Shown here: piece by piece, positions 6,616 to 27,582 of the stretch
Layout: every line of letters starts with the position of its first letter
How positions within the stretch are numbered: the stretch's first letter is position 1
NCBI GenBank assembly: GCA_049966915.1
Contig: JBMFTS010000002.1
Location: 1 to 45,542, forward strand
DNA: 45,542 nt
Source of the DNA: Candidatus Micrarchaeia archaeon
Lineage (GTDB): Archaea; Micrarchaeota; Micrarchaeia; Micrarchaeales; CABMGC01
Direction of reading: 5' to 3'
The notes under the pieces: generated by a model
The model's database searches: none
The model's input: the letters and a program-made list of their open reading frames with translations, nothing else
What the model was told of the DNA's origin: nothing
Position numbers and translations under genes: made by a program

Positions 6616-6620
6616 TGGTC

Positions 6621-6636
6621 CTTTGTTTGCTCCCGA
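6621..6636 (+). repeat. 3' arm of the rRNA processing stem (ctttgtttgctcccga)
   Basis: Perfect reverse complement of 3771-3786. Confidence 0.8.
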
Positions 6637-6692
6637 TTTTTGTTTTTGCTAATGCTCTGTCTTGTTTTGCTCCATTTCGCGCTGCTGCACAG

Positions 6693-6701
6693 CTTTTAAA
6701 C
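6693..6701 (+). promoter_or_regulatory. TATA-like box (cttttaaac) for the membrane-protein operon
   Basis: Centred about 26 nt upstream of ATG 6723. That spacing is expected for a leaderless archaeal transcript. Confidence 0.4.
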
Positions 6702-6722
6702 TTTTGTTGCCTATTCATTATT

Positions 6723-7454
6723 ATGTCGAACGTGCTTGCCGACGCCGCAGCAACCTACTCTAGAAACATACGGCTAGTGCTCCTGTTCTCAATTCCTTTT
6801 CTTATTTCTTTCCTAATCCCGGTTGTCGCTCCTTTGCCGGCATATGTGTCAGGCGGGGCCATATTTCTCAGGACATCGGGCTTGTTCGTCAACACCAATC
6901 CCATTTCGCTTGCTATAATAGTGCTCGCTTTATTCTTCTCGCTGCTTTTCTTGAGTTTCGCATTCGTGGCTATAAGCCTGATAGTAAAGGCGGAGAAGAC
7001 GCATACCGCAATAACAAAGTCGGTGCTCCACAACCTCGAAAAGTACACGGGCAAGGTTTTTCTCGTGCTTCTCTTCTACGTGTTCGTGATCATGCTTGCA
7101 GACATCGCCGGCTATTTTGTAAACGCTTCGGGCATCGTCACCGCGGTAGTCGGCTTTTTCGCTTTCATGGCGATTTTTTACGCGCCTACAGCGATAGTAA
7201 TAGACAACAAGCGCATAGGCGTGGCCCTGAAGGACAGCGCCAGGCTCTCTTTCAACAGGCCCCAGTATTTCCTGCTTTGGCTTGTGCTCATAATAGCAAC
7301 AGTGTCGCTGCTCGACTTCCTGCTAATTCATTCGGTCGGCGGCGTTTATTCGGCGTACGCCCTTCTTGTCATCAACTCGCTGTTTGTTGTGCCGTATTTT
7401 GTAATATACCAGGCGCACGCGTACATGCGCAGATTCCAGATTCTTAGGCACTAA
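6723..7454 (+). CDS. Polytopic membrane protein (about 6 TM), first gene of the operon, not a member of the paralog family
   Basis: The ORF track starts it at TTG 6615, inside the rRNA processing stem. ATG 6723 (MSNVLADAAATYSRNIRLVLLF...) is preferred. The protein is very hydrophobic, lacks the R-x5-R-x2-GG motif, and matches no family I recognise. Confidence 0.7.
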   Translation: MSNVLADAAATYSRNIRLVLLFSIPFLISFLIPVVAPLPAYVSGGAIFLRTSGLFVNTNPISLAIIVLALFFSLLFLSFAFVAISLIVKAEKTHTAITKSVLHNLEKYTGKVFLVLLFYVFVIMLADIAGYFVNASGIVTAVVGFFAFMAIFYAPTAIVIDNKRIGVALKDSARLSFNRPQYFLLWLVLIIATVSLLDFLLIHSVGGVYSAYALLVINSLFVVPYFVIYQAHAYMRRFQILRH

Positions 7455-7490: not shown

Positions 7491-8681
7491 ATGCGCGCGC
7501 TTAATATCGGCGTTTTGCTTTTGGCGTTTTTCGCCATGTTCGGGCTTTCAGGCGCAGCCACTACTGCATACGTTTTGCCAAGCTCTTTCATCGCCGCGTC
7601 GCTGCTTGCGCTCACCATATCAATAGACGTAGTCGCTATAGGCTACGTCATTGCAAGGCTTGTGCCAAGCACGGGCATAAGGAGCTGGCTCGACACAGAA
7701 TACTGGGAGCTCGCAAAGAGCGCAATGATAATAATTGGCATATATGCTATCCTGGCATTCATCGGCAGCGTCAGCTTGATTGTTTATAACAGCTATTATC
7801 CAAGCATATCGCATGCCGCAAGCCCTGCATGCGGCTATTCCGCGCAATCCGCAGGCTCATATTCTGCAAGCATAGGCTCGCTAGCATCTGCAGCAGGCTG
7901 CTATCTGAGCAATACGGCAAGCGAAGTGGGCACAGCGATGCAGGACTTTTTCTTTCTTTCAGAGTCGCTGGGCGGCTTAAGAAGCATAACGCTCACAATA
8001 GAGCCTCCGATAGTTCTTCCGGATTTGGTTAATTATCTTCAGTTTGGCTTCTCCACAAAGATTTACGCAAACCAGCTGCTAGAGCAAGGGGTAACTACAG
8101 GCAAGTACGAATCGATGATAAACGACCTGTTTTCCATCATGCTCATACCAATTGCATTGCTCATAGCGGTGCAGCAAGTGGGCTTGGGCTATATAGTTGC
8201 GATAGGCCTGGGCTTTCTCATACCCCTCGGGCTCGTGTTCAGGGCGTTTCCTTTTATAAGGGGCATAGGCGGCACGCTCATAGGCATCGGCGTGGCGCTT
8301 GCGGTGGTATACCCGGCTACGCTTGTGCTGCTCAACATGCCGGTTTCGAACGCGTTCGTGTTTCTGGCGCCGACTACATCTAGTATGACATCCGTAGCGG
8401 CGAGTTCCGGAGTTCCGGTGCTGTTCAATATAGTCGATGCCCTGCTTCCGCCGCCCATAGCTCTCGGCATTCTTGGCGCATCGATCGCTCCTTTATTTGC
8501 ATACGTTGGCGAGATATACACGTTCCTAGACATATACCTTTTCTACGGCACATACTTGCTGCTCCAGTTCCTGCTGTTCATACTCGACCTTGTCATAGTA
8601 TACGCGCTTGGCGATAACATAGCAAGGATGTTAGGCGGCACATTCAGGCTGAGCTTCGGCAACAAGCTCAAGCTCGCGTAG
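7491..8681 (+). CDS. Paralog B of the six-member polytopic membrane protein family
   Basis: Signal-peptide-like N-terminus (MRALNIGVLLLAFFAMFGLSGA) and an extracytoplasmic loop of about 120 aa with two Cys. Motif RAFPFIRGIGG at 8241-8273, followed by TLIGIGVALAVVYP. C-terminal tail ARMLGGTFRLSFGNKLKLA. Confidence 0.8.
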   Translation: MRALNIGVLLLAFFAMFGLSGAATTAYVLPSSFIAASLLALTISIDVVAIGYVIARLVPSTGIRSWLDTEYWELAKSAMIIIGIYAILAFIGSVSLIVYNSYYPSISHAASPACGYSAQSAGSYSASIGSLASAAGCYLSNTASEVGTAMQDFFFLSESLGGLRSITLTIEPPIVLPDLVNYLQFGFSTKIYANQLLEQGVTTGKYESMINDLFSIMLIPIALLIAVQQVGLGYIVAIGLGFLIPLGLVFRAFPFIRGIGGTLIGIGVALAVVYPATLVLLNMPVSNAFVFLAPTTSSMTSVAASSGVPVLFNIVDALLPPPIALGILGASIAPLFAYVGEIYTFLDIYLFYGTYLLLQFLLFILDLVIVYALGDNIARMLGGTFRLSFGNKLKLA

Positions 8682-8689
8682 GTGATGCA

Positions 8690-9868
8690 ATGGCAAACGT
8701 GCTATTGAGCGCTTCCGCGTGCGGTCTTTTGTCACCTAGCGTGAGCATAGGCTACGGCGGCTCGCTTGCTTCTGACTGGCTGCAGATAAACGTGATGCTG
8801 GTGCTGATAATAGTGATGATTTCCAGCCTGCTTTACGCGCTCAGCGCGCTCATGCCTACGCAAAGGCGCGAGAAGCTAAGGGGCGTAGTCCGCTACGAGA
8901 TTTTTGAAGCCATTGTAAGCGTTGTGCTGATATTCATAATAATGGCCATGTCAAGCATGTCGTGTTATATAGGCGCGGGATTGTCGACTTCGGGCACAAG
9001 CAGCGGATATTCTGGCGTTTTCCAGGGGGACGAGCTTTATGTAGGCAATTTGGTGTTTAGCAGGGGTGCTAGCCTTGCCTCGCAGCTTTACACCACTGCC
9101 ATACAATACGCCATAGCTTCGCAGATTGTATCATACGCCGCTTCGCAAATAGACGCGTTTTTTGAAGCCCTTGCCCAAGGAGCGTATGCAATACCTGCAG
9201 TAAACACGAATTCGCTCATAAATATTTATAGCACTTATTCCGGCGTATTTTCGGGATTGTTTGCAGGAATAACCCTTGCAGTATTCAGCGCTTTGTTCAT
9301 TGTGTTCTTGATGTTGCCCGTCGTGCAGGCAATATCGCTTACAGTAATACTTCCTGTGGCGATATTTACAAGGACGCTAGCGTTTACCGGACCCAAGCTC
9401 AGAGAGATTTCCAACACATTCATAGCGCTTGCACTTGGACTTTTCTTCGTGTTCCCGCTAACTATCGCATTCAACGGTTACATCGCCAACTGCATGAATT
9501 TAGGCGTTTCGAATTCGGGCTCCAGCCAGTGCAGCTGGCTCAACACGCAATATCTCACTATTACTCCGCCGCCAATAGCGGTATCATCTTTGTTTACTTC
9601 GACAACTGTATCCGGCGTTAATCTTCCGTTCGATTTCTTTAACGCGATTTCTTCGGCTGGCGCAGCACCAGGCCTGGCAGGCATGTTTTCGCTCATCTTT
9701 GCTGCTCCGACAGTCACACTTAGCTATGCAAATGTGGTGGCAGAGTATGCATTCACCGGGATCGTGCTAATAGCGATAGATTTGCTCATAACCGTCGGTT
9801 TTGTTGCAGGCATAGCAAAAGGGCTTAATGTGATGTCCGGGATAGTCGGAGGAGGTTCGTTCTGGTGA
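8690..9868 (+). CDS. Paralog C (divergent member) of the membrane protein family
   Basis: GGTGAT Shine-Dalgarno-like sequence 4 nt upstream. The aligned motif is FTGPKLREISN (9383-9415), which keeps P4 and R7 but has SN in place of GG. It is followed by TFIALALGLFFVFP with Pro at the same offset. Tail AKGLNVMSGIVGGGSFW. Confidence 0.75.
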   Translation: MANVLLSASACGLLSPSVSIGYGGSLASDWLQINVMLVLIIVMISSLLYALSALMPTQRREKLRGVVRYEIFEAIVSVVLIFIIMAMSSMSCYIGAGLSTSGTSSGYSGVFQGDELYVGNLVFSRGASLASQLYTTAIQYAIASQIVSYAASQIDAFFEALAQGAYAIPAVNTNSLINIYSTYSGVFSGLFAGITLAVFSALFIVFLMLPVVQAISLTVILPVAIFTRTLAFTGPKLREISNTFIALALGLFFVFPLTIAFNGYIANCMNLGVSNSGSSQCSWLNTQYLTITPPPIAVSSLFTSTTVSGVNLPFDFFNAISSAGAAPGLAGMFSLIFAAPTVTLSYANVVAEYAFTGIVLIAIDLLITVGFVAGIAKGLNVMSGIVGGGSFW

Positions 9869-9876
9869 TATGATGA

Positions 9877-11634
9877 ATGCACATGTTTCAAAAGCGGCCT
9901 TTGCGGCTGGTGGTTGTCGTGTTAAAGGTTAGGATTGCGGCTTTAGCTGTTTTGGCAATGCTTGTGCCTTACTCTATGGCGCAGGGCATAGAAATAGCGC
10001 CGCAATCAGCGTTTGGCAATTGGCTTCCAGTCATGTTCGCAGCGGTGCTGCTCAGCATAGTCATAACCTCTGTATACTATGTATTCGGGTACCTGCTAAA
10101 TGACAAGAGGGTAAAAGAAAGGGCAATCACCGAATTTGCACAGGCCATAGGTACTGGAATACTTGTGGTAGTGATAATAGCAGTGTTGGAGCTTGTGGGC
10201 TCTACATTGTTGTCTCCGATATCAGTGCTGTCTGCAGGCAGCGTAAACGGCATTTGCAACAGCCTGGTTAATTCAAAAGTTACATTTCTCAACTCTGCCA
10301 ATTCCGCCTCACCGGTCAATGCCATATGCAACGACATAATATTGCCGTTGGCGTCGGGTTCAAGCAAGCAGTCGCTTACTGACAAGATAGATTACGGGGT
10401 GGCAGCCACTTATGTGGTAATAGCCAATGTCACTAATCAGGCTGCAAACAATCTTGACGCGTTTTATGTATACGACGGCATGATAAGCTTTCTCCGCGAG
10501 CTCACTTCAGTTAACGGCTTCGGCAGCTTCGGCGTGTGGAGCGTAACTTTTCAATATGCTCCTTTGGCAGGCTACAACTTTCTTAGGAAAATGAGCCTCG
10601 CTGTCGGCATAGTAAGCGCGCTAGTCATCGACTCCTTTGCCGCACAGCTCCTGGTAATATTGTTGGTGCTTGTCACGTGGCCGTACGTGCTAGCCGCAGG
10701 CGTAATTTTCAGGGCCACGCCATACACGCGAAGGCTGGGCGGCCTTCTTATAGGAATTGTGCTGGCGTTGCTCGTTATTTGGCCCGTGCTATTTCTGTTT
10801 GAATACGCCTCACTGGGCACTACGCAGTCTTCCTTCCCCATAGGTTCAAACACAATACCGTACACTCCTGTCTATGAACTTATGCCAAACGGCAACGTAA
10901 TGGTTTACGGCGCCTCTTCCGGTTATGAGCAAGTCACTACGCAGAGTATCGCAGGCTGCCCACCAGGCGACTATGTTTACGAAGGAATTTGCGGAGAAGC
11001 CAGTACTGTCGGCTCGCCGCCCGACTGCAAGCTGCCAAGCCAAATTTCGCAATTCCAGATGTGCCAAAACGGCTTCGCTCCAGATAACGCGCTGTGCCAC
11101 AGCGGATCCTATGTATATGAGGGTGTTTGCGGCGATCCGAATACATCTGCCCGTACTGCGCGATGCTTCAACCAAAACCAGGCGGCACAGAGCGGTCTTC
11201 CAATGTGCCCAAGCAGCCCTATTTTGCACGACACCGGAATTGCGCTGTTCCAATTGCCTAACGCTACGGAAACCGTAAAATATTATTCGTGTTGGCCGCC
11301 TTCCGGCAACCTGCCGCAAGCTGAAGCCGAGGCCGCCGCGTTTTACCTAATACCTTTCTTTGGCCTTGGAGCGGCGGCTTATCAAACAATCGCGTCCATC
11401 GTGAGTTCGACGTCGAGCGTATCTAGCATACCGTACTACCCTCCAATCATAACCTGCAGCCCTCAAAACGCTCTCGACACAGGCTTGGCGTTTACCAATA
11501 TCTATGGCATAACAAGCATATCTGCATTCATATTGCCCCTGCTCAACGTGCTAATAATTTACGGCGCCGCAACGAGCTTGTCAAAGCTGCTCGGCGGCGA
11601 AAGCGACATACTGGGCCTTAGCAAACTGATATAG
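9877..11634 (+). CDS. Paralog D, carrying a tandemly duplicated 4-Cys module in an outside loop
   Basis: Motif RATPYTRRLGG at 10711-10743, then LLIGIVLALLVIWP. Tail SKLLGGESDILGLSKLI. A Cys-rich insertion at 10957-11292 is unique to this paralog. Signal peptide ends in SMA-QG. Met3 (9883) is an alternative start. Confidence 0.8.
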   Translation: MHMFQKRPLRLVVVVLKVRIAALAVLAMLVPYSMAQGIEIAPQSAFGNWLPVMFAAVLLSIVITSVYYVFGYLLNDKRVKERAITEFAQAIGTGILVVVIIAVLELVGSTLLSPISVLSAGSVNGICNSLVNSKVTFLNSANSASPVNAICNDIILPLASGSSKQSLTDKIDYGVAATYVVIANVTNQAANNLDAFYVYDGMISFLRELTSVNGFGSFGVWSVTFQYAPLAGYNFLRKMSLAVGIVSALVIDSFAAQLLVILLVLVTWPYVLAAGVIFRATPYTRRLGGLLIGIVLALLVIWPVLFLFEYASLGTTQSSFPIGSNTIPYTPVYELMPNGNVMVYGASSGYEQVTTQSIAGCPPGDYVYEGICGEASTVGSPPDCKLPSQISQFQMCQNGFAPDNALCHSGSYVYEGVCGDPNTSARTARCFNQNQAAQSGLPMCPSSPILHDTGIALFQLPNATETVKYYSCWPPSGNLPQAEAEAAAFYLIPFFGLGAAAYQTIASIVSSTSSVSSIPYYPPIITCSPQNALDTGLAFTNIYGITSISAFILPLLNVLIIYGAATSLSKLLGGESDILGLSKLI

Positions 11635-11641
11635 TGGTGAC

Positions 11642-12832
11642 ATGCGAGCGAGCCGTGCTTTGATGTTTTTTGTCATGTCGTTGCTGCTTTTGTCACTTTC
11701 AAAAGCAGGCATAGGCATACCTACAATATATTCGCCTGTTTCAGCCCAAGCTGCACCTACACTTGCCAATAGCTTTGACAACGCGCTTATGCCCGTATGC
11801 TCCAGCATGATTGCCCCGCTTTCTGGTTTAGGCGGCAGCTATTCTGCGCTGCTGAGCATTTCACTGGCCATAGTGTTTATGGTGCTGACAATACTGGGCG
11901 TAGTGTATGCAATAGGCAGGGCTTTCGGCATACCGGTGCTCATGGAGTTCGTCAAAAAAGAATACTTGGAAAGCATTTTCAACATAGTGCTCATAGTTAT
12001 TGCCGCAGGCGGCTTGGGGTTTGCCGACGCGTCGGTGTCATTTCTTAGCAATCTCGCACTCAGCTCATCGGCAACAGGCCAAGCAAGCGTCAGCAGCATA
12101 AGCAGCGCCAACAGCCTGTATCTTACCCTGTGCAATACATATCTTAGGAATGGCATAACTTACGGCCTAGTCGACATAGTTGTTTTGGTAGGCCCAAACA
12201 TTATAGACTCATCAATGTTGCAAAATCTTAGGGTGAGCATAGGAAACACTAGCGAAGACAATCCGCTGGGCGTTTCTGTGTCGTTTTCGCCTTTCGCTGG
12301 CATATATCCATATGTGCAAGTGCTTTCCGCAGAAAACAATGCAGTTTATGCAATGATTGCGGTATATTTGGGCATAAGTTTCTTGCTTGCAATAATATAT
12401 GGCATATTTCCGCTGCTGTTCTATGCCGGCATACTCCTGAGGTCTTTTCCATGGACGCGCGCTGCCGGAGGCGCGCTGCTTGCGCTTTTCATCTCCTTCT
12501 TCATAGTTTTTCCTAGCATACTTTTCGCATTTGCTAATGCGCCGTCAAGTTACGGCGAGTCATCAGCAAGCATATATACTGGAATTGCTGGCTTTTTTGG
12601 AACAATTGCTAGCTTTTTTGGACCAGCAGTAAGCGGCATACTTGCCGGTATAGGTGCAACATCAATAATTTCGGAAATGGAATCATTTGTCAGCGTATTC
12701 GCCTATGGCGCTTTGCAGTTGCTAGGCTTGATTGTCGCCCTGCTTGTGTCGTTCGATCTTCTGGAGAGCCTTGGCGATCTGCTCGGCGCGCCGTCGCTTC
12801 AGAGCAGGAGCCTGCTTAAAAACGTGATATGA
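11642..12832 (+). CDS. Paralog E of the membrane protein family
   Basis: GGTGA precedes the ATG. Motif RSFPWTRAAGG at 12440-12472, then ALLALFISFFIVFP. Tail GDLLGAPSLQSRSLLKNVI. N-terminus looks like a signal peptide. Confidence 0.8.
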   Translation: MRASRALMFFVMSLLLLSLSKAGIGIPTIYSPVSAQAAPTLANSFDNALMPVCSSMIAPLSGLGGSYSALLSISLAIVFMVLTILGVVYAIGRAFGIPVLMEFVKKEYLESIFNIVLIVIAAGGLGFADASVSFLSNLALSSSATGQASVSSISSANSLYLTLCNTYLRNGITYGLVDIVVLVGPNIIDSSMLQNLRVSIGNTSEDNPLGVSVSFSPFAGIYPYVQVLSAENNAVYAMIAVYLGISFLLAIIYGIFPLLFYAGILLRSFPWTRAAGGALLALFISFFIVFPSILFAFANAPSSYGESSASIYTGIAGFFGTIASFFGPAVSGILAGIGATSIISEMESFVSVFAYGALQLLGLIVALLVSFDLLESLGDLLGAPSLQSRSLLKNVI

Positions 12833-13797
12833 TGCTGCCCGTTGCCACAATGATGTTAAGCATTTACAGCGTAATGACGTCGCCGGTCTACGCATGGTTC
12901 CCTGTCGCTATAGCCGGCGCAATTGCCATTATCGCAGTATTGGCGCTGGTATACGAGCTTAGTCCATTTTTCGGAAGAACAGACCTGCGCGCGTGGGCCA
13001 AAATAAAGATGTACGAGGTATTTTTCTCGATAGTTCTCATATTCGTGTTTTTCGCTTTCATGGCCGTATTTTCCAGCATAAACTTCGGGAGCACATTGGG
13101 CCAGCTCGCTCCTAAGGATTGTGCGAGCAACTTCGACATCTATGCTCTTTCGATGTGCGACCTTAACCATTTCCAAAGCTACGTGGCGCAGTTCAACAAT
13201 CTGGTGTTCGTGGCCATGTTTTCTACTGTTCCAAGTACCGAAATAGGGGTAAAATTGCCTGATTTTTCAGCTTCAACTAGCATTTCTGGCGCGGATGCCG
13301 CATTCGGGTTCTCATTTGTGGAATTGAGCATACTTTTCGCGTTTTACATGCTTAGCGACGTTCTTCTTTTGCTGCTATCGGTCTCACTTCTGCTTTTTGC
13401 AGTGTTCATGGCGATTGGTCTTATTTCCAGGATTTTCGAGGTAACAAGGACTTTTGGCGGGGCAATGATCGCCTTCGGAATAGGCTTGGGTATGCTATTT
13501 CCGTTGCTTATCGCTTTGTCGTACGGCTTTGTCGACGTTGCCGTTTCCAAAGCAGCTAGCCTAGTTACCATTTCTGGTTTGGAGAGTGCCTTGCTAGGTA
13601 TCATTTTCGCTCCGCTTGGCGCGGCCCTTGCTATCGATGCGTTAGTAAACTTTTTTGTATTTGCCGGTTATATTATAGCAGGCATAGTGTTCCTGCCAAT
13701 TTTTACGCTTACAATAGTGGACGTCTTTATACGTGACTTTTCAAGGGCGGTCGGCGAGCAGATGAATTTTATGAGCATATTGACAAACATGATATGA
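12829..13797 (+). CDS. Paralog F of the membrane protein family
   Basis: ATGA start/stop overlap with paralog E. Motif RIFEVTRTFGG at 13429-13461, then AMIAFGIGLGMLFP. Tail SRAVGEQMNFMSILTNMI. C-x11-C pair (CASNFDIYALSMC) in the first outside loop. Confidence 0.8.
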   Translation: MMLPVATMMLSIYSVMTSPVYAWFPVAIAGAIAIIAVLALVYELSPFFGRTDLRAWAKIKMYEVFFSIVLIFVFFAFMAVFSSINFGSTLGQLAPKDCASNFDIYALSMCDLNHFQSYVAQFNNLVFVAMFSTVPSTEIGVKLPDFSASTSISGADAAFGFSFVELSILFAFYMLSDVLLLLLSVSLLLFAVFMAIGLISRIFEVTRTFGGAMIAFGIGLGMLFPLLIALSYGFVDVAVSKAASLVTISGLESALLGIIFAPLGAALAIDALVNFFVFAGYIIAGIVFLPIFTLTIVDVFIRDFSRAVGEQMNFMSILTNMI

Positions 13798-13815
13798 GGC
13801 GATGATACGGACAAG

Positions 13816-14910
13816 TTGCCTACTCTAGTTTATGCAATCGTGTTTATTTCGCTGTTATTCGGCATTTCATTAGCCAGAATCATCACAGCCCCGCCGCCAC
13901 CGCCTCGTGTCGTTGGTTCTACAGTGTCATCGTGCCCGCAGATTGCGCAGGCAGTCGCTCCATGGTATTGCAACCAGATAAATCAGGCTGCGGCAGCGAT
14001 ATGGGCCAAGTGGGAACCGATAGCTGCGGTAGCGGCATTTGCATCTTTTGTCCTTGCAGTCATAATATTCACAATAGGCATAGCAATAAGGAACAACAAG
14101 GTCAAGGAATTCGGAATAGGTGAAATGTACGAGGCGGTTGCCACTATTATCATGGTGGTGATGTTTCTGTTCATCTCCGCTACAATGTTTGGAATACTGC
14201 CTGCAATTACGACCGGAAATATAGATCCATATACTGTTGCGCTTACATACATAAGCAAAAACATAAACGAGACGCTATACCTGCAAAGAATAATGTTTAA
14301 TTCTTATATGATAGGCAGTTATTATGCATCCATATCCCTGATCGTAAGTATTGGCGATTCGTCAATACCGATTTCAATGCTGTGGAACTTGCCGGTAACT
14401 GTTTATTATTTGCTCCCGGTAGACGCAATTTCTTCAATTGTTCTGGAAGCATTGCTTCTGCTTTATACAGAATTCTACATGATACTTTTCTTCATGTATG
14501 CCAGCATACCTGTGTTTCTTATACCGGGCATAGTGCTTAGGGCGCTGTTCCCGACGCGCAGCGTTGGCGGGATGATGATTGCCATAGCAATCGGCTTTTA
14601 CTTTATCATGCCAATTCTGTTTGCCGTTGCGTTCTACTTTACTAGTTCGAGTGCGCTGGCTTCTGTATACTCCGGTGCGCAAGCAATAGCGGCTAACGGC
14701 CAGGGCAGCTCGAGCATAACAAACGCCATAAGCCCGACAAGCCCGCTTGTTCTAGCGATCAAGAACATACAAAGTGGAATGGGGGCCTATTGGATGAGCA
14801 TACTGTTTTATCCTGCGCTTATAATAGCCATAGTATACGAAAGCATAATGGTCATCGGAGAATTTATAGGCGGATTTGCGAAATCATCTGGATTGCTCAG
14901 GGCGATATAG
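13816..14910 (+). CDS. Paralog G of the membrane protein family
   Basis: TTG start with GAGG 17 nt upstream. Motif RALFPTRSVGG at 14539-14571, then MMIAIAIGFYFIMP. Tail GEFIGGFAKSSGLLRAI. An APPPPPR stretch and a C-x11-C pair (CPQIAQAVAPWYC) follow the N-terminal helix. Confidence 0.75.
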   Translation: MPTLVYAIVFISLLFGISLARIITAPPPPPRVVGSTVSSCPQIAQAVAPWYCNQINQAAAAIWAKWEPIAAVAAFASFVLAVIIFTIGIAIRNNKVKEFGIGEMYEAVATIIMVVMFLFISATMFGILPAITTGNIDPYTVALTYISKNINETLYLQRIMFNSYMIGSYYASISLIVSIGDSSIPISMLWNLPVTVYYLLPVDAISSIVLEALLLLYTEFYMILFFMYASIPVFLIPGIVLRALFPTRSVGGMMIAIAIGFYFIMPILFAVAFYFTSSSALASVYSGAQAIAANGQGSSSITNAISPTSPLVLAIKNIQSGMGAYWMSILFYPALIIAIVYESIMVIGEFIGGFAKSSGLLRAI

Positions 14911-14911
14911 C

Positions 14912-19069: not shown

Positions 19070-21409
19070 CTAGACTATAAGTCCGCTCAAGTCTTCTATG
19101 CTGACAAGCTTTACGTGGCCGTATTGTATTGCCACTTTTAACACCTCAGCGGTTTCTGTGAACGCGCTGTAAAGCTTTTTAGAAAATTCCGAGAGCGCTT
19201 CGTTGCTGACAAATACTATGAATATGTTGTCGTTTGCGTCTATTTCGAACCGCCTCATACCACTTTTCCTGGAGTAGATTATCACCTTTGCCTGCCTGCC
19301 TTTTTTCGTTATGAGCATGTCTGCACTAGGTTCTGCGTTGAGCTCCGTGAAGAGCACAGCGTGTTCCACGCAGTAGTCCCTGAGAGCCCTAAACACCACA
19401 AGGTATTCTATGTCGTGTTTGGAAATCGAAATCCATTGGGCGAGCGCGTAATAGCCCGATTCTTCGATTATTGCGCCTGACTTGGTCAATGTGTCAAGAA
19501 TAAGTTGCGCATTCTGCGTTGTAATTGATACTGGCACGTTGTTGTAGCGTATGTAGCTTGCTATGCCGTTCTTGAATTCTTCGAGCGTGAGTGGCATGAA
19601 ATTCCAGTGATAATAATAGTTGACTTTTTCAAAAACCCCGAGCATGTCTTCCGGCTTTGTTTTTATCACTTCCCTTTTTTCAGGGAGAAACGTGGGCACG
19701 TCTATATAATATTCGTCGCGGTTTGGAGGTTTTAGAACAAGGTTGAGGAGCAATACCGCAAGCAGCACTACGCCGACTTCTATGTAAAACGCGGGTATGT
19801 GCATTATTTCCTTTGAATAAGTAGTGGTGTAGTTTATTCTCTGACCGAATACGTCTATGCTGAACTGCTGCTTGCCATAGCTTATTATGGTGCCCTTCGG
19901 CAAATCATACTCCATTACGCCTGAAGAAATAGGCACTATCTCGCCGTATGCTTTGTCAAAACTTACCTGCGCCTTTGCGCTTACCGGAAACGTGCCGCTA
20001 TAAACGTCAAATTCGAATGTGCCGTTCTTGAAATTCAAATTCACCGGTGTTATGTTGAGTGTTGGCACTGAGAATAGGGCAGCCGTGTAGTTTTCGTTAT
20101 ACTGGTTTCTTAAAATCGCAATATAAGTGCCGGTCGGCAGCGAAAAGCTGTGTGTGAGCACTATTTGTACGCTGCCTAAAAACGTGTGGAGAATACTTAC
20201 GGAAGTGACATAGCTCATGTTTGTGTCTAATATGTCTATGTGAAGCTGTGATTGCGTGCTGACGCTGCTGTTTATGCCAATGGAAACGTTTTGCGTATCG
20301 CTTATTACGCTTGGCATCGACATTGTGCCATGCAGCACGTACTTTGATCTGAAAGGCGCAAGCACGTATTCGAAAGCCGAGGCGTTGCCAACGCCAAGCC
20401 TCAGCAGCGAGTATGTGCTGTTCAGTGCGGAAATCTCAGCAGTATTATTGGGCATGGGGATGCGCTGCAGGTTCGTGTATATGCCTATTGCGCCAGTGCC
20501 GTTTGACACGTTTTCTATGCCATATGCAAGCCTGTCAAGCCAGAAATCGGCGCTTATGCTAGAAGCCAAGCTGTACGCCTGCACGCTTGCGTTGGGCCAG
20601 GCAACATTGGGATAGTTTGAAAATGCTATAATGGTGCCATTGTGCACGTTAATGTATGAAATGCCGCCATACCGGTTGCCTGCACTAAAAAAGAACGTGG
20701 GCTGTTTGAAGGAAGAATTGAGCTTTGCTTCCTCGCTTGCATTCATCACCGAATACGCAGGCATTGTCGATATGCCATATGCCGCAAGTTCCGATGTGAC
20801 ATTTTGCGGAGTGACAAATATTACGCCGCTTGTGCCTATCGCTTTGCTGAAGTTGCGGCCTACGTATATCACGGTGTCGCCGTTGTCAAGCAGCTTGAAA
20901 ATGCTTATTGACTGGTTCTCAAGCAGCGGCAAGGGCATAAGACCAGAAGCTATTATCACTATGGAGTTGTTTATGTGTTGCAGGTCCTGCATTGGCACGT
21001 ATGAAAAGCTTGAAGAGTTGATCAAAAGGCCGAACGCGCTGAGTTCCCTGCTTAGGTTTTCATAAACCGCAAGCCCGTCGAACGCGTCTATGGAATACCT
21101 GCTCGTGTTTACCAAATAGATGCGTTTTATGGGATTTTGGGCATAAACCGCAAGCGATATGTTGGCCGTCGTCACGTTTATTGCAGAGTAGTTTGCAAGG
21201 GCGTAGTCCACCAATTGCATGCCGTTTTCATAATCGAAAAAAGAGCTCTCGACCTCGCTTATCGCTGCGCGCATGGGCGCCTGCTTTATCGCAGGCGCGG
21301 CCTGTATTTTTTTGAGCGCAGCCGCGGACATGCTTGCTATCGCAAAAACAAGCAGCAGAACGACAACTACCAGTGCGGCCCCTATTATTATGAATTTTTT
21401 GCCTCGCAT
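19070..21409 (-). CDS. Bitopic surface glycoprotein: signal/anchor, ectodomain of about 520 aa, TM helix, cytoplasmic domain of about 220 aa
   Basis: N-terminal helix FIIIGAALVVVVLLLVFAIA. I counted about 26 N-x-S/T sequons in the ectodomain. Second TM is FYIEVGVVLLAVLLLNLVL (about 19733-19800). The cytoplasmic tail (19073-19732) includes a winged-helix-like stretch, LILDTLTKSGAIIEESGYYAL. Confidence 0.75.
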   Translation of the reverse strand: MRGKKFIIIGAALVVVVLLLVFAIASMSAAALKKIQAAPAIKQAPMRAAISEVESSFFDYENGMQLVDYALANYSAINVTTANISLAVYAQNPIKRIYLVNTSRYSIDAFDGLAVYENLSRELSAFGLLINSSSFSYVPMQDLQHINNSIVIIASGLMPLPLLENQSISIFKLLDNGDTVIYVGRNFSKAIGTSGVIFVTPQNVTSELAAYGISTMPAYSVMNASEEAKLNSSFKQPTFFFSAGNRYGGISYINVHNGTIIAFSNYPNVAWPNASVQAYSLASSISADFWLDRLAYGIENVSNGTGAIGIYTNLQRIPMPNNTAEISALNSTYSLLRLGVGNASAFEYVLAPFRSKYVLHGTMSMPSVISDTQNVSIGINSSVSTQSQLHIDILDTNMSYVTSVSILHTFLGSVQIVLTHSFSLPTGTYIAILRNQYNENYTAALFSVPTLNITPVNLNFKNGTFEFDVYSGTFPVSAKAQVSFDKAYGEIVPISSGVMEYDLPKGTIISYGKQQFSIDVFGQRINYTTTYSKEIMHIPAFYIEVGVVLLAVLLLNLVLKPPNRDEYYIDVPTFLPEKREVIKTKPEDMLGVFEKVNYYYHWNFMPLTLEEFKNGIASYIRYNNVPVSITTQNAQLILDTLTKSGAIIEESGYYALAQWISISKHDIEYLVVFRALRDYCVEHAVLFTELNAEPSADMLITKKGRQAKVIIYSRKSGMRRFEIDANDNIFIVFVSNEALSEFSKKLYSAFTETAEVLKVAIQYGHVKLVSIEDLSGLIV

Positions 21410-21410
21410 A

Positions 21411-21566
21411 CTACAAACTACCCGCTTCCCCTTTTTTGGCCACTAGCCTGTTGACTAAATTTTCAAACGCCTTGGAAAGTTTGTTCTCGCTTCCGCCAAT
21501 GCGCTTGACAATCCTGTAAACCTTTATGTAGCTGTATTTTTTGTTTATTGTAACCGCGTATATCAT
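21411..21566 (-). CDS. Candidate 51-aa basic protein (below the ORF-track size cut-off)
   Basis: Manual translation: MIYAVTINKKYSYIKVYRIVKRIGGSENKLSKAFENLVNRLVAKKGEAGSL. Its TAG stop is 1 nt from the ATG of the 779-aa gene (TAGTATG). It fills an otherwise empty 169-nt gap. Confidence 0.4.
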   Translation of the reverse strand: MIYAVTINKKYSYIKVYRIVKRIGGSENKLSKAFENLVNRLVAKKGEAGSL

Positions 21567-21578
21567 TCAACCGCCTGA

Positions 21579-22310
21579 CTATCCTTTTAGTTCCAGGTAG
21601 CCTAGGCTTACCATCTTGTCAAGTATCTGCTCCACCCTGGGCTCGGGTATCTTGTACGTTTTTGAAAATTCTCCTATGTCTATCGTGCTGTCGTGCACTT
21701 CAAGCCAATCCTGCACCATCGCCATTAGCGCTTCGTCCGAATATGTTTGCAGGGCGTTGAGCTGTTCCTGCAGTTTCTTGTTTTCCTCGCTCAGTTGCGA
21801 AGCCTGTATGGTCAGGTTGTGGTTCGATACTGTGAGCTCGCTCGCAAGTTTTCTCAGTTCGGCGTATTCCGCCAATAACGCGTCGTACTTGTTGAAAAGC
21901 GAACTGTAGTTTTCGTTGAGCCCGTCGAGCAATTCCGTTATTGACGAATCCACATATTGGAAGAACTTCTGCTGGTCCACCCTGAAATCGTCGGCTATCA
22001 CGGCAAGCATTCCTGCCACATTTTTGATTACAGTAGCACGGCGCATCCTCTCGCTAGTATTCGGCACTATCGAATAGGTGAGAAATACGCCGTCTTTTCT
22101 CAGCTTGACAATGTAAAACAGAAAAGGCTCCTTCCTAACATTCCTGCTTTCTACGTGCACTACATCTAGTTCGTCTGCGCTCTGGGTTATGGAATAGAAC
22201 GGGATCTGTGCGAGTTTTGCGCGTATAGCGTCAAAGCTGCTTACCACTGACCCCGGAAATTGCACCTCTTCGACTTTCGGTTCAGGTATTTCTTCTTCGG
22301 CCACTCTCAA
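21579..22310 (-). CDS. Cytoplasmic coiled-coil protein with a C-terminal winged-helix-like domain
   Basis: TTG start preceded by GGAGG. The central heptad-rich segment is NKYDALLAEYAELRKLASELTVSNHNLTIQASQLSEENKKLQEQLNALQ. C-terminus is IGEFSKTYKIPEPRVEQILDKMVSLGYLE. Confidence 0.65.
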   Translation of the reverse strand: MRVAEEEIPEPKVEEVQFPGSVVSSFDAIRAKLAQIPFYSITQSADELDVVHVESRNVRKEPFLFYIVKLRKDGVFLTYSIVPNTSERMRRATVIKNVAGMLAVIADDFRVDQQKFFQYVDSSITELLDGLNENYSSLFNKYDALLAEYAELRKLASELTVSNHNLTIQASQLSEENKKLQEQLNALQTYSDEALMAMVQDWLEVHDSTIDIGEFSKTYKIPEPRVEQILDKMVSLGYLELKG

Positions 22311-22504
22311 GCATCCTCCGGACGTGCATTCGCAGCAATGCGAGCACGTAGTTTATGACATTAGGGGCTTACGCACTTATAAATCTTTTTGCGTATCTGC
22401 AGCGTTAAAGACGGCAAGTCTGTTTATTGCAATAAAGTCGTTTCCGTGCGTGTGCGCCGAAGTGCTTGCATGCAAGCGCGTTGCACTGTCGCGGCTGCGC
22501 GCAA

Positions 22505-22897
22505 TCAGCGTTTGCCAGTGTGCCTACTTTGCGCCGTTGCCGCGTTTTCCTGTTTGGGCATCTTAAGCTTGGGCGTGTAACTGAGCAACGAAAACGCGTA
22601 AAGCAGCGCAGTTACGAGTATGCCTACTCCGAGCGCGTAAAGCTTGTCCGATGCCACGAACAGCGAGAACAGCGTGAAAATAATACCCAGTGCAAGGTAG
22701 AGTTTTTCCCTGCCTTCATATTTTTTGCGCATAATTGCGTATTTCGGGTAGCACTCTTTGCAAACGACCAATCTGTTTCCTTGTTCGTTCTTTGTAACGT
22801 TCCTTTTGAACCATCTTATTGTGTTTATGACCCAGTCCTGCTCTACTTCTATACCCTGCTTTTCCTCGCCGCAGACTATGCAAATGCTCTTTGCCAT
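22505..22897 (-). CDS. Zn-ribbon protein with a C-terminal 2-TM hairpin
   Basis: CIVCGEEK...VCKECYPKY (CxxC...CxxC), followed by LYLALGIIFTLFSLFVA and ALGVGILVTALLYAFSLL. The ATG shares one nucleotide with the upstream TAA (TAATG). Confidence 0.65.
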   Translation of the reverse strand: MAKSICIVCGEEKQGIEVEQDWVINTIRWFKRNVTKNEQGNRLVVCKECYPKYAIMRKKYEGREKLYLALGIIFTLFSLFVASDKLYALGVGILVTALLYAFSLLSYTPKLKMPKQENAATAQSRHTGKR

Positions 22898-23196
22898 TAT
22901 GATCCCAGCTCAAGCTCTACGAGCTTTCCGTATTCTTTCTTTATCTTTTCTTCGTCGAGCATGTTCATGACGTTGGTTATTGTCACGTCGTCTATTCCCA
23001 AGCGTCTTAGCACGTTCACTACTTGCTCGGTCTTCAGCCCGGATTTTTCTAGAAGCCCGGCAAATGACACTGCGTTTACGTGCCTGTGCTGCTTGTTGAG
23101 CTCGCCGAGCAGTTCCTGCACTGTTTTTTCGCTCACTCCTATGAGCGTAAGCATGCGCTGGAGCTTCTGTCGCGACACAGTGAATGTGGCTCCCAT
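22897..23196 (-). CDS. Small soluble protein, a paralog of the C-terminal tail of the adjacent ATPase
   Basis: Start taken at Met14 (MGATFTVSRQ...), which removes the overlap with the ATPase gene. The segments MLTLIGVSEKTVQELLGELNKQH and LLEKSGLKTEQVVNVLRRLGIDDVTITNV align with ATPase residues about 435-498. Confidence 0.6.
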   Translation of the reverse strand: MGATFTVSRQKLQRMLTLIGVSEKTVQELLGELNKQHRHVNAVSFAGLLEKSGLKTEQVVNVLRRLGIDDVTITNVMNMLDEEKIKKEYGKLVELELGS

Positions 23197-23218
23197 ATTG
23201 TTTACCTTGTTTGCATTG

Positions 23219-24724
23219 TCAAGTAACGTACACAAATGCCCTTGTTATTACCGAATCGGGCAGGCCTATCGCCCTGAGAAAGCCGACTATTGCTTCCTTG
23301 CTTACCTGCTTGCCCAAAAGCAGCTGCACGAGGCTTCTTACGTCGGCAAGCCTGCCTTTTGCGTCCAGCTGTTTGAAAACGTCCTCTATGATTTCAGACC
23401 CGACGTTGTTTTCTATCAGCTTTGCGCTTATGTCCGCCTTTTCAAGGAAGTATTCCTTTTGCACGGTTTCGTCGGCGAGCTCGCTCTGGCTCAGTATGTC
23501 TGCAACGTTTATTGTATATACGTCTAGCGGCACCTCTCCAACAACCCTGTCGAGCAGAAATATTTCTGGAAACTCCACATTGGTTTGAAATGACATGTCG
23601 ACTGCCGCCTGGCCCACTCCGAACTTGCTTATTTCGCGCCTCATAAACTCGGAAAAATTGAGCGAGCCCTGCAGATAATCGAGGAAGCGCTCGAATCTTA
23701 TTCTTAAGATTATGTTAGTGCCAACGTTTGAAAATATTGCTTCGTTTATGTCAGTGGGGTTTTGCGATGCCACGATAAGGCCAAACTGGTATTTGCGGCC
23801 TTCCCTTATTATCGTCACCGCGTCGCTTCGCTCGTCGCTTGCTATCTTCCATGCTTCGTCGAGCACGACAAGCGCCTTGAGTCCTTTGGTGGCAGACCAG
23901 CCCTCCATTCGCATTTTTTCTTTAAGCGTTTGCAATATGAACAATGCAGCAAGCGCCCTAAAGCGCTCGTCAGGCAGGCCGGAAAGGTCTATGTCCACGA
24001 GGCCTGAGCTAGAGAGCTTGCCAAGGTCTATTGTGCTCTTTCTTGCGAAATAGTCCTCGCCCTCCCTTGCAAACTGCCTGAGCCTGTATACCGCGTTTTC
24101 TAGTTCGGCCGGATACTCGTAAGTGCCTCCCTGCAGCTGCTCCTCAAGAAGCGATATCACCTCCTTGAGCGTTGGCGCCTCTTTGCCCACTTGCGGCGTT
24201 TCTGCCAGGTTGAAGCCCGCATTCACGTATGCCTGCTCTAAAGCCTCTTCGGTAAGCCTCTTCTGTTCTGGATAGTCGCTTATGTCGGTAAGTATCTCCA
24301 GAGAAGTAAGTATCTGCTTGGCGCGGTCGAGCGGTTTCATGCCAGAAAGGTCCATTATGTTGAGATAGTCCCCTTTGCCCAGAGAGACTATCGTGCCGCC
24401 GCTCTGCTTTACCCACGCTTTGTATTCGCCGGCCCAGTCTATTATTATTGCGTTGGTATTCCAGATGAAGCTGGCCCTCGCGAGGAAAGTCTTGACGAAG
24501 AAGCTCTTGCCTGCGCCGGTTATGCCAACTACTGCTATGTGCGGATTTGTAAGGTTTGAAAAGGTCCATGTGAAAGGCACGCTGAAAAGCTTTGTTATGC
24601 CTATGAATATGGAATTGGTCGGATCGTTAAGCAAATAGTCCGCAGGCGGCTCTGGAGGCCTGCTCAATATAGTCCTTTTGCCGAGCTCGTTGCTCATTAT
24701 GTTTTGCAAGCGTAAAAGGCCCAT
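23219..24724 (-). CDS. VirB4/HerA-like (FtsK-HerA superfamily, DUF87-type) P-loop ATPase
   Basis: Walker A GITGAGKS (24503-24526). Walker B VVLDEAWK (23855-23869 covers VVLDE). Also REGRKYQFGLIVASQNPTDI, typical of HerA/VirB4/TraC-like translocases. At 501 aa, with the P-loop at residue about 70, it lacks a long VirB4-type N-domain. Confidence 0.8.
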   Translation of the reverse strand: MGLLRLQNIMSNELGKRTILSRPPEPPADYLLNDPTNSIFIGITKLFSVPFTWTFSNLTNPHIAVVGITGAGKSFFVKTFLARASFIWNTNAIIIDWAGEYKAWVKQSGGTIVSLGKGDYLNIMDLSGMKPLDRAKQILTSLEILTDISDYPEQKRLTEEALEQAYVNAGFNLAETPQVGKEAPTLKEVISLLEEQLQGGTYEYPAELENAVYRLRQFAREGEDYFARKSTIDLGKLSSSGLVDIDLSGLPDERFRALAALFILQTLKEKMRMEGWSATKGLKALVVLDEAWKIASDERSDAVTIIREGRKYQFGLIVASQNPTDINEAIFSNVGTNIILRIRFERFLDYLQGSLNFSEFMRREISKFGVGQAAVDMSFQTNVEFPEIFLLDRVVGEVPLDVYTINVADILSQSELADETVQKEYFLEKADISAKLIENNVGSEIIEDVFKQLDAKGRLADVRSLVQLLLGKQVSKEAIVGFLRAIGLPDSVITRAFVYVT

Positions 24725-24767
24725 GCTAATACATTTTTCACTAATTTATTTAATAGTGCTGTTGGCG

Positions 24768-25592
24768 CTATTTCTGCACTGAAAATTCAAGCTCGAGCTC
24801 CTGCTCGCCTGGCAGCGCGTAATTGAACTGAAACAGCGAGTAAAGCTCCCTGCCAACGACGCGAGTTATGCTGAGGTCGAACCCGCCGAATACCGTTTGC
24901 AAGTGGTCGAGCTGCGAAGACAGGCTGTCAAGTGCCTCCTTTTCGCTCACGCCCACGGCCGTGCTTTCTATGTACATTAGCGCATTTATCGGCCTTTCGC
25001 CGCTGGAGAGCCTATCTATTCGAGTTTGTATTATGTTTATTCGCCTCTGCAAGTCCTCTATTGTGAGTTGGCTTGGCGTAGTTGAACTCATTTCCCTTGA
25101 CAGCTGGAATTCAAGCGCGCCCCTTCTCGCTTCAAGCTCGTCCCTGTACTTTTGCAGGTCTTCGGCAAAGCAGACAATGTCATACTTGAAAGGAAACGTT
25201 ATGTTTTGCACTATGCGCTCCCAGTTGTTGGGGCCCTCTGCAAGCAGCGTTTCTTCGCCTTCCTGTATCTGCTCTACAGTGAACACGTAGTTGTATATGT
25301 TGGCAGTGAGGTAGCCTGTGGCATAGTACACGCCGTTTACGTATTTTATTATTGCGTTGTTGGCCTTTGGTATGTAGTAGTCTTTTGCGGGTATTTGCTT
25401 TATGTTTAAAATTGTGGTAAAAAGCGGGAACAGCAGAAAATCAGCGTAATTTATTATGAAAAATGCCAGTATGGCAAGTATTGCAAGGACTGCCACGATT
25501 ATGGCCGCTGAGCCGTACGCTGCCGACGCCATTGCAACAAGTATCGCTATTATCGAGCATGTTGCTAAATAAAATATGGTATTGGCGTCCAT
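24768..25592 (-). CDS. 2-TM membrane protein with a ~200-aa soluble domain (paralog of 25593-26435)
   Basis: Two N-terminal helices, then a soluble domain with a coiled-coil-like stretch (YRDELEARRGALEFQLSRE). By eye it aligns with the upstream gene: NYADFLLFPLF vs YYAYLFAPLL, NNAIIKYVNGVYYATGY vs GNAIVTKRGSEFYVSAF, and VGVSEKEAL vs SGASEEEAT. Confidence 0.7.
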   Translation of the reverse strand: MDANTIFYLATCSIIAILVAMASAAYGSAAIIVAVLAILAILAFFIINYADFLLFPLFTTILNIKQIPAKDYYIPKANNAIIKYVNGVYYATGYLTANIYNYVFTVEQIQEGEETLLAEGPNNWERIVQNITFPFKYDIVCFAEDLQKYRDELEARRGALEFQLSREMSSTTPSQLTIEDLQRRINIIQTRIDRLSSGERPINALMYIESTAVGVSEKEALDSLSSQLDHLQTVFGGFDLSITRVVGRELYSLFQFNYALPGEQELELEFSVQK

Positions 25593-27530: not shown

Positions 27531-27582
27531 GTTGTTTACTATGCAAGAAAGAAATAAGAAACTTGCGCAAAGCGCAATCAGG

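Follow-up and report, generated by a model that had tools for sequence, protein, structure and literature searches.

The ATPase gene and the surrounding cluster

The window analyzed here, that is, the whole stretch of 45,542 nucleotides, comes from contig JBMFTS010000002.1 (positions 1 to 45,542 of the forward strand) of the assembly GCA_049966915.1 of a Candidatus Micrarchaeia archaeon. It contains the gene of a P-loop ATPase with 100% identity to a deposited protein annotated as an ATP-binding protein of Candidatus Micrarchaeia archaeon (P0001), two adjacent genes, C280 and D274, encoding proteins with a transmembrane (TM) hairpin, an array of six genes of polytopic membrane proteins (M1-M6), and several accessory genes (Table 1). 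Our analysis suggests that the ATPase is the motor of a machine related to type IV secretion systems (T4SS), with the N-terminal domain of the motor encoded by separate genes.

Relatives of the ATPase were sampled in one genome per GTDB species, which yielded 435 stretches with a relative; the best 80 of the 435 (68-88% identity) come from metagenome-assembled genomes labelled mostly as Micrarchaeota and include the complete genome of Ca. Micrarchaeum sp. A_DKE. Synteny was assessed by tblastn of all window neighbours against a set of 81 loci. A cluster of about 15 genes around the ATPase gene recurs in every one of these Micrarchaeota loci. In nearly all of them the genes follow the order X279-M1-M2-M3-M4-M5-M6-C280-D274-ATPase-F112-G130-H243-s51-I779 on one strand, M1-M6 lying directly upstream of C280 in most genomes. 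A rearranged version is seen in the window and its closest relatives: here the M array occupies the plus strand (7491-14910), followed in the window by genes for an Exo5-like nuclease, alanyl-tRNA synthetase (AlaRS) and CarS, while the remainder is found on the minus strand (19070-26435). The sequence-only reading, an earlier description made from the letters of the window, considered partners in the operon of the ATPase gene; the predicted machine is much larger, including M1-M6 on the other strand and several soluble partners.

The cluster is also present in the cultured Ca. Micrarchaeum sp. A_DKE (NZ_CP060530, ~801-822 kb). The flanks in the window are of a housekeeping type (undecaprenyl pyrophosphate synthase, DUF2070 protein, AlaRS, CarS, pyruvate phosphate dikinase, fibrillarin, Y-family polymerase, thioredoxin reductase, histidine kinase) and vary among lineages, and GC content is even throughout the window, with no local deviation. 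A typical Micrarchaeota cluster was also observed on contigs labelled as Marsarchaeota, Methanothrix sp. or "bacterium" (L006, L045, L048, L050, L062, L074); these labels are probably binning or labelling errors.

Motifs, conservation and family placement of the ATPase

The polypeptide begins about 55 residues before the P-loop, and no TM segment is predicted in it. Its P-loop domain is of the FtsK-HerA type, a helical insert separating Walker A from Walker B, and has the Walker A motif GITGAGKS at G67..S74, the Walker B motif VVLDEAWK at 286-293 (D289, E290) and the GRKYQFGLIVASQNP block at 309-323 (R310, Q321). Among 27 aligned relatives, the most distant at 23% identity, six residues (G67, G70, G72, K73, E290, R310) are invariant and two more, D289 and Q321, nearly so (at least 90%); the Walker motifs and the conserved Arg and Gln that mark this domain in VirB4, TraC and TrbE are thus all intact. 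The open reading frame (ORF) and motif positions given in the sequence-only reading agree with these data. Its statement that the protein has no attached membrane part or N-domain holds for the ATPase chain itself, and does not extend to the machine, in which C280 and D274 are predicted to supply the N-domain in trans (see below). In relatives in which both parts are fused, the first 55 residues, which include a conserved PPEPP motif, align with the stretch that links the two domains.

The ATPase is the most conserved protein of the cluster, its median identity over the 81 loci being 71.7% versus 31-53% for the other cluster proteins. The C-terminal helical domain is conserved within the unfused subfamily. 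Two homologues of 1026 and 1196 amino acids (P0122 and P0123; 51-54% identity) contain large insertions with intein and LAGLIDADG-like features, one within Walker B (LF|C...N|CVVDEAWK) and one just past Walker A (GSGKS|V...HN|S). As inteins at such positions are typical of conserved and important genes, they suggest that the ATPase gene is one of these.

An exhaustive search of cluster representatives with the ATPase gave 2023 matches at E <=1e-3, 81 of them at E <=1e-30. Three Pfam models pass their cut-offs, with scores far above what chance would give: DUF87/HerA central domain (2e-18; 67.7 vs 23.2 bits), AAA_10 (48.7 vs 27.5 bits) and P-loop_TraG (35.8 vs 25.8 bits), whereas FtsK_SpoIIIE (16.1 vs 24 bits) and TrwB_AAD_bind (15.7 vs 20.5 bits) match the P-loop alone and remain below theirs. 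The NCBIfam models CedD, VirB4-like CD1110, CedB, HerA, TraC and VirB4_CagE match at 1e-12 to 1e-20; the HerA models NF040937 and NF040819 miss their cut-offs (56.2 vs 800 and 52.8 vs 970 bits). The VirB4-like and TraC models cover the core in one stretch (VirB4-CD1110 residues 39-326, TraC 55-370, VirB4_CagE 50-353); matches to VirB4, TraC and DptH run from Walker A to Walker B, while those to HerA cover mainly the C-terminal half of the core (NCBIfam HerA models, residues ~240-393). A profile built from 27 relatives matched HerA-like proteins, DptH and the VirB4 C-terminal domain 4ag5 among PDB sequences at 1e-24 to 1e-30, with the HerA and HerA-like chains 8wiv, 4d2i and 8xau at the top. 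In plasmids, tblastn of the ATPase hit more than 5000 records, 4619 of them conjugative, the features under the match being TraC/VirB4. Together, these matches support the assignment to the DUF87/VirB4-like branch of the FtsK-HerA superfamily made in the sequence-only reading. Judged by sequence comparison, the ATPase is a distinct family in the HerA-VirB4 clade, outside every curated family.

A candidate N-domain encoded in trans

D274, present in 75 of the 81 loci and invariably just upstream of the ATPase gene, and its neighbour C280 encode paralogs (BLASTP 6e-5; hhalign 97.6%, 4.8e-12). Their relation to the ATPase is suggested by fused relatives of 870-910 amino acids, in which the C280 profile aligns with residues ~2-250 and the ATPase profile from ~285 on. 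The seven best matches of the C280-family hidden Markov model (HMM) fall colinearly on the first ~250 residues of such proteins (P0204, P0172, P0170, P0163, P0162, P0211 and P0174; E from 6.7e-7 to 0.029). Profile-profile comparison with the N-domain of the fused ATPases gave 97.4% (1.5e-11) for C280 and 88.8% (2.5e-6) for D274, and D274 matches the single N-domain gene of a group of compact relatives (see below) at 99.3% (2e-20). The homology is visible by profiles alone: as single sequences, neither D274 nor C280 has a significant BLASTP match to a fused relative (E 0.03-4.7). From these profile matches, C280 and D274 are predicted to be the N-domain of the ATPase, encoded in trans and homologous to the N-terminus of the fused relatives. 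By the Rosetta-stone argument, fusion in relatives implies that C280/D274 and the ATPase act as one unit, in which the 2-TM hairpin would anchor the motor.

The C280 profile found no match among PDB sequences, and the pointer to VirB4 comes from the fold search. In an AlphaFold2 model of C280 (32-sequence alignment, pLDDT 79), the TM hairpin leads into an alpha/beta domain that includes a long helical hairpin. In a Foldseek search of PDB with this model, ranks 1-5 are TrwK/VirB4 chains of the R388 T4SS (7o41_A, 8rtd_P/h/g, 8rtb_B), with probability 0.97-1.0 over ~200 columns; a sixth TrwK chain, 7o41_B, has rank 7, so that TrwK accounts for six of the seven best matches (probability 0.84-1.0, E 0.016-0.087). 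The modelled fold is thus supportive of the N-domain identity, though not conclusive.

Five of the fused relatives (P0162, P0163, P0172, P0174 and P0204; loci L085 and L086) end in a winged helix-turn-helix (wHTH)-like segment and a PD-(D/E)xK-like motif, D..VEVETK, recognized by eye and unconfirmed by family search. P0172 adjoins a 291-aa protein with a precomputed Pfam CedA1 match. Its neighbours recur as near-identical copies on contigs of 3-7 kb, which have been binned to Bathyarchaeia, Nitrososphaerota, Thermoproteota and Jordarchaeales; because the bins represent four or five archaeal phyla, the fused relatives may reside on a small mobile element.

The membrane protein array and compact relatives

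The M family is linked to the ATPase gene in all 81 loci. M1-M6 are paralogs, every pair matching in hhalign at 97.4-99.8%, and have in common a motif of the type FRAxPxTRxxGGxLIGI as well as an LLGG tail at the C-terminus. X279, found upstream of M1 in 33 loci (many others end short of that position), is unrelated to them (hhalign against the M families below 2%). The AlphaFold2 model of M6 (pLDDT 82, pTM 0.71) has TrwI/VirB6 (7o3v_G) as its highest-probability PDB match (0.82), with the best TM-scores in the list. An HMM of small pilins repeatedly matches the N-terminal hairpin of M2 orthologues (hmmsearch, E 0.0015-0.1), which agrees with the resemblance of the CedA/VirB6 N-terminus to the CedA1/VirB2 pilin (PMC9905601); hhalign of the M families against small pilins was insignificant and leaves this likeness unconfirmed. 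No VirB6/TrbL-, CedA1- or pilin-like Pfam match was found in 38 M-family members, in the N-terminal 130-160 residues of M1-M6, or in X279, G130, A153 and B381. Judging by the weak fold match of the M6 model, M1-M6 may be VirB6-like and are regarded as candidate VirB6/CedA-like channel subunits.

Simpler arrangements occur on other archaeal contigs (compact loci L082, L083 and L087), in which a small two-helix protein, one M-family protein, one D274-like protein and the ATPase are encoded in this order. The M-family gene is recognized by hmmsearch at ~1e-20 and by hhalign at up to 99.3%, and the D274-like gene at 1e-18. The two-helix protein matches the Pfam families T4SS_pilin (1.7e-5; 25.2 vs a cut-off of 26.6 bits) and TrbC/VirB2 (1.9e-4); VirB2/T4SS_pilin matches, just under cut-off, are confined to these compact relatives. 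L082 also encodes another P-loop ATPase (755 aa, 13240-15507; weak Zot and HerA_C matches), which lies three genes downstream of the VirB4-like one; it might be a coupling-protein analogue, and no counterpart of it was seen in the Micrarchaeota cluster.

Accessory genes and other neighbours

Downstream of the ATPase gene, F112 and G130 are each present in 79 of the 81 loci, G130 directly after F112. F112 is a paralog of the ATPase tail (residues 12-93 against ATPase residues 419-500; hhalign 96.9%, 1.5e-10), and three "G-hydrophobic-x4-hydrophobic" repeats were noted in the shared domain. Profile searches of PDB and Pfam matched no known family for it; a role as a helix-hairpin-helix DNA-binding module was considered and is unsupported, as the calmodulin, BurrH, UBA and Topo V (0.05) matches are nonspecific. 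For G130, Pfam and NCBIfam gave no family match.

H243 occurs in 70 of the 81 loci; its Pfam matches are of the coiled-coil type alone and below cut-off, and a compact relative has, downstream of its ATPase gene, a gene that H243 matches weakly (3.7e-5). The short ORF s51 was found by tblastn at the same position in 38 of the loci. I779 is the final gene of the cluster in 68 of them; its ectodomain has 26 NxS/T sequons, as judged from hydropathy and sequon count, and no family match was found in Pfam or NCBIfam. Its cytoplasmic tail, compared as a profile, has weak similarity to the C-terminal wHTH-like part of an H243-like protein of a compact relative (0.0045). The sequence-only reading held that the only partners in the operon are membrane proteins; this is not so, F112, H243 and the 51-aa ORF having no predicted TM segment.

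Table 1. Features of the ATPase cluster and neighbouring genes in the window (-, minus strand; +, plus strand).
Feature	Position	Strand	Description
ATPase	23219..24724	-	501 aa, ATG start; predicted C-terminal motor half of a split VirB4/HerA-clade protein
ATPase tail	residues ~419-500		helical, ~82 aa, family-specific
D274	24768..25592	-	N-terminal TM hairpin and cytoplasmic alpha/beta domain; predicted N-domain paralog 1, directly upstream of the ATPase gene
C280	25593..26435	-	2-TM hairpin and cytoplasmic alpha/beta domain; predicted N-domain paralog 2
M1-M6	7491..14910	+	six consecutive paralogous polytopic membrane proteins of 396, 392, 585, 396, 322 and 364 aa
X279	6615..7454	+	~8 TM segments; precedes M1 in many genomes
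F112	22897..23235	-	soluble, 112 aa; free-standing paralog of the ATPase C-terminal helical domain; start overlaps the ATPase stop
G130	22505..22897	-	CxxC...CxxC zinc-ribbon-like N-terminus (four Cys) and C-terminal 2-TM hairpin (64-84 and 85-109)
H243	21579..22310	-	soluble; central coiled coil, wHTH-like C-terminus
s51	21411..21566	-	putative soluble 51-aa ORF between H243 and I779
I779	19070..21409	-	large surface protein; N-terminal TM/signal, ~500-aa ectodomain, TM 534-563, ~215-aa cytoplasmic C-terminal domain
B381	26508-27653	-	Ser/Thr-rich, sequon-rich membrane protein
A153	27583-28044	-	starts MHKAQSSFELLITLSFGLAILL; resembles a class III (type IV pilin) signal peptide of archaea
CBS-domain protein	28037-29161	-	immediately upstream of A153, 8-nt overlap
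Exo5/PD-(D/E)xK nuclease	14876-15808	+	overlaps the M6 end and the AlaRS start

Several further genes lie next to or within the cluster. B381 and A153 were considered as core parts and rejected, since they are present in three and one of the 81 loci, respectively, all of these being the closest relatives; the start of B381 is uncertain because the two ORFs overlap by ~70 nt. In the CBS-domain protein (2.8e-30), the C-terminal segment resembles ribosome hibernation factors of the S30AE/HPF family, though weakly (1.6e-4, slightly under the cut-off). The Exo5 nuclease (Pfam Exo5, 1.8e-41) is probably unrelated to the machine, as it is linked to the M array in the rearranged lineage alone. In locus L001, from another Micrarchaeota genome, a class-III-signal pilin with a Laminin_G_3 domain (12186-13073) is inserted between the G130 and H243 homologues, and a Gly-rich 360-aa membrane protein between M6 and C280.

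Proposed machine and alternative explanations

We consider it probable that the ATPase is one half, the motor, of a split VirB4-like protein in a chromosomal, relaxase-less, domesticated T4SS or Ced/Ted-like apparatus of Micrarchaeota. Like its FtsK-HerA relatives, the ATPase may form a ring, presumably a hexamer, which C280 and D274, by analogy with the fused one-chain relatives, would hold at the membrane. The ring would power a membrane complex of M1-M6, the candidate VirB6/CedA-like channel with a pilin-like N-terminal hairpin, and the large, putatively N-glycosylated protein I779 could belong to the same complex together with the accessory proteins F112, G130 and H243. The cargo could be DNA or another macromolecule exchanged with the host cell, in whichever direction the transport runs; this is our leading guess, suggested by analogy with Ced/Ted and by the apparent nuclease-like C-terminus of the fused relatives.

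Several observations weigh against this explanation. Although CedD, VirB4-like, CedB, HerA and TraC models all match the ATPase, it reaches no curated NCBIfam cut-off, with scores of about 5-20% of the cut-offs: the VirB4/TraC/TrbE models TIGR00929, TIGR02746 and NF045971 gave 46.1 of 643, 54.5 of 567 and 60.9 of 325 bits, and the CedB and CedD models NF041017 and NF053655 gave 60.4 of 700 and 72.8 of 600 bits. In sequence, the ATPase is approximately equidistant from HerA and VirB4, and R388 TrwK, a proteobacterial VirB4, is absent from the PDB matches of the ATPase profile at E <=0.001. The fold matches are weak, both for C280 with TrwK (E 0.016-0.04, TM-score 0.30-0.34, the aligned range of TrwK being unreported) and for M6 with VirB6 (E 0.27, TM-score 0.32/0.38). 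None of the 38 M-family members has a Pfam match, and the CedA1-domain protein of L085 gave no significant hhalign match to the M families. The scan of window ORFs identified no VirD4-type coupling protein, and in the Micrarchaeota loci checked a free-standing VirB2-like pilin was seen in L039 alone, as one 157-aa ORF (2.6e-6).

The proximity to HerA raises the question of whether the ATPase is instead a HerA-type helicase of DNA end resection and repair, with NurA encoded elsewhere and the membrane proteins being unrelated neighbours. The PDB sequence matches are headed by Sulfolobus HerA (4d2i) and several HerA-like chains, the NCBIfam HerA models match at 2e-15 and 2.3e-14, and JGI labels homologues of the ATPase as "DNA helicase HerA-like ATPase". 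Nevertheless, we find this very improbable: a HAS barrel is not present, the 55 residues before Walker A aligning instead to the linker of the fused relatives; the scan of window ORFs revealed no NurA, Mre11 or Rad50, and what is conserved around the gene in the 81 loci is the cluster itself; HerA matches mainly the C-terminal half of the core, while VirB4, TraC and DptH span it in a single stretch; and the strict synteny with the 2-TM N-domain genes, together with the existence of both parts as one chain in relatives, links the ATPase to the membrane. Moreover, the supplement of PMC8975820 lists a separate arCOG00285 HerA_helicase of 569 aa (Micr_00101) in Ca. M. harzensis. The preference of the sequence-only reading for a membrane-docked translocation motor over a HerA-NurA repair helicase is therefore supported, given that neither a HAS barrel nor NurA was found and that the synteny with membrane proteins extends to all 81 loci. 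Even less credible is an ATPase of an anti-virus defence system (HerA-associated, DndH/DptH-like or mad8-like), suggested by matches to the PADLOC models HerA (2.4e-21), mad8 (2.1e-19) and DndH (9.2e-17) and by the full-length PDB profile match to DptH (7es4, 1.1e-27). Defence systems are patchy and fast-evolving, whereas the ATPase has relatives in 435 stretches, the best 80 at the identities given above and with a fixed 15-gene neighbourhood; its cluster partners have no convincing PADLOC match and are polytopic membrane proteins rather than Sir2, nuclease or methylase effectors.

A machine belonging to an active conjugative element or plasmid, or a packaging ATPase of a provirus, instead of one owned by the host genome, would be in line with the overwhelmingly conjugative TraC/VirB4 nature of the plasmid matches, with hits to PHROG families (phrog_7035, 3.6e-23, and a terminase-annotated family, 7.1e-14), and with the small, phylum-crossing contigs of the fused relatives, which suggest mobile elements. 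We regard this as highly unlikely for the Micrarchaeota version, since integrase, relaxase, VirD4 and capsid genes were not found near it among the window ORFs scanned, and since the cluster combines lineage-varying housekeeping flanks with an order conserved in 81 of 81 loci and an even GC content. The PHROG and PADLOC matches were set aside as core-domain similarity without matching partners. A T4SS-like machine that builds a surface filament or attachment structure, or exports proteins, rather than translocating nucleic acids, is unlikely, but the most credible of the alternatives. VirB4-type ATPases drive pilus biogenesis as well, the hairpin at the N-terminus of the M-family proteins is pilin-like, a VirB2-like pilin is encoded in the compact relatives, I779 appears to be a large glycosylated surface protein, and class-III-signal pilin-like genes occur in or beside the cluster (A153 in the window and the LamG pilin in L001). 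Filaments have also been seen at Micrarchaeum-host contact sites (PMC8975820); however, the cited cryo-electron tomography study ascribes them to the host, and the nuclease-like C-terminus of the fused relatives and the Ced/Ted precedent would point towards DNA as the substrate.

Returning to the domesticated T4SS-like apparatus, a bolder version of it would be an essential, Micrarchaeota-wide nanomachine derived from conjugation machinery, by which these genome-reduced archaea take up DNA or other macromolecules from Thermoplasmatales hosts and which serves as a symbiont-host conduit. It would consist of the split VirB4 motor, a hetero-oligomeric platform of six VirB6-like proteins and a glycoprotein reaching the S-layer. 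At present, this extended version seems doubtful.

Comparison with known systems

Literature searches did not reveal a description of such a cluster: no paper pairing Micrarchaeota with VirB6, or connecting them to a VirB4/VirB6-type system, was retrieved, the searches on DPANN archaea and VirB4, T4SS or Ced gave no account of the Micrarchaeota cluster, DPANN is unmentioned in the Ced/Ted paper (PMC9905601), and no occurrence of secretion, pili, ATPase or HerA was found in the paper on Ca. M. harzensis. The cluster is apparently an architectural variant of a T4SS/Ced-type machine, undescribed for Micrarchaeota.

The similarity to the VirB4/TraC/TrbE part of T4SS includes the FtsK-HerA-type P-loop domain, the one-stretch model matches and the 4ag5 match of the ATPase, the 2-TM hairpin of C280/D274, which recalls VirB3 and VirB3-VirB4 fusions, the neighbouring polytopic M family with its weak VirB6 fold match, and the VirB2-like pilins of relatives. 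Unlike in T4SS, the ATPase and a duplicated N-domain are made as separate chains; the VirB6-like protein has six paralogs rather than a single copy; VirD4, VirB11, relaxase and VirB8 were not found with the cluster; and the cluster is part of the chromosome, recurring from one Micrarchaeota locus to the next, and not the cargo of a mobile element. With HerA and HerA-like defence ATPases, the protein shares the core sequence, the Pfam DUF87 match and the top PDB sequence matches; it differs in lacking the HAS barrel, in the membrane-protein context and in that neither NurA nor a defence effector was found as a partner.

A parallel in archaea is offered by the Ced and Ted systems (CedA/CedA1/CedA2/CedB/CedD and TedA/B/C), chromosomal T4SS derivatives that lack a relaxase and combine a VirB4/HerA-like ATPase with a VirB6-like membrane protein and a VirB2-like pilin (PMC9905601). 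The paralogs CedB and CedD have N-domains that superpose on different parts of the VirB4 N-domain (PMC11868833), which is reminiscent of the two paralogous N-domain proteins, C280 and D274, beside one ATPase. CedD and CedB are, moreover, among the best NCBIfam matches of the ATPase, and a fused relative adjoins a CedA1-domain protein. On the other hand, the ATPase scores about 10% of the equivalog cut-offs; CedB and CedD combine TM segments, N-domain and ATPase in one chain, while the Micrarchaeota version is split; M1-M6 have no detectable similarity to the CedA1-domain protein, which was seen as a neighbour at the fused relative alone; and Ced/Ted are DNA-import systems of Thermoproteota, whereas the present cluster belongs to DPANN.

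Micrarchaeota and other DPANN archaea depend on host cells, and we know of no machinery identified as linking a DPANN symbiont to its host. If the proposed T4SS-like reading is correct, the cluster is a concrete and testable candidate for such machinery, present in the cultured Ca. Micrarchaeum sp. A_DKE, and the Ced/Ted type of domesticated T4SS extends from Thermoproteota to DPANN. Its architecture would be unusual, with a split VirB4, a duplicated N-domain, six VirB6-like paralogs and a C-terminal domain of the motor that also occurs as a separate small protein; such an arrangement could help to dissect how the N-domains of VirB4 proteins couple ATP hydrolysis to the membrane channel.

In Nanohaloarchaeota, a VirB4/TraG-like domain is part of SPEARE-type giant proteins with a proposed role in host interaction (PMC10266531). 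In Patescibacteria, or the candidate phyla radiation, most genomes have a VirB4-centred relaxase-less T4SS, thought to be co-opted for the epibiotic lifestyle (PMC12102498). The latter system is bacterial, of the monoderm MPF-FATA type, and has a canonical one-piece VirB4; the parallel is that of lifestyle and logic, an ultrasmall host-dependent lineage with a relaxase-less T4SS, and implies no claim of homology. Should the extended version outlined above, doubtful as it is, prove true, the cluster would be an archaeal counterpart of the Patescibacteria system and the long-sought basis of the conduit between symbiont and host.

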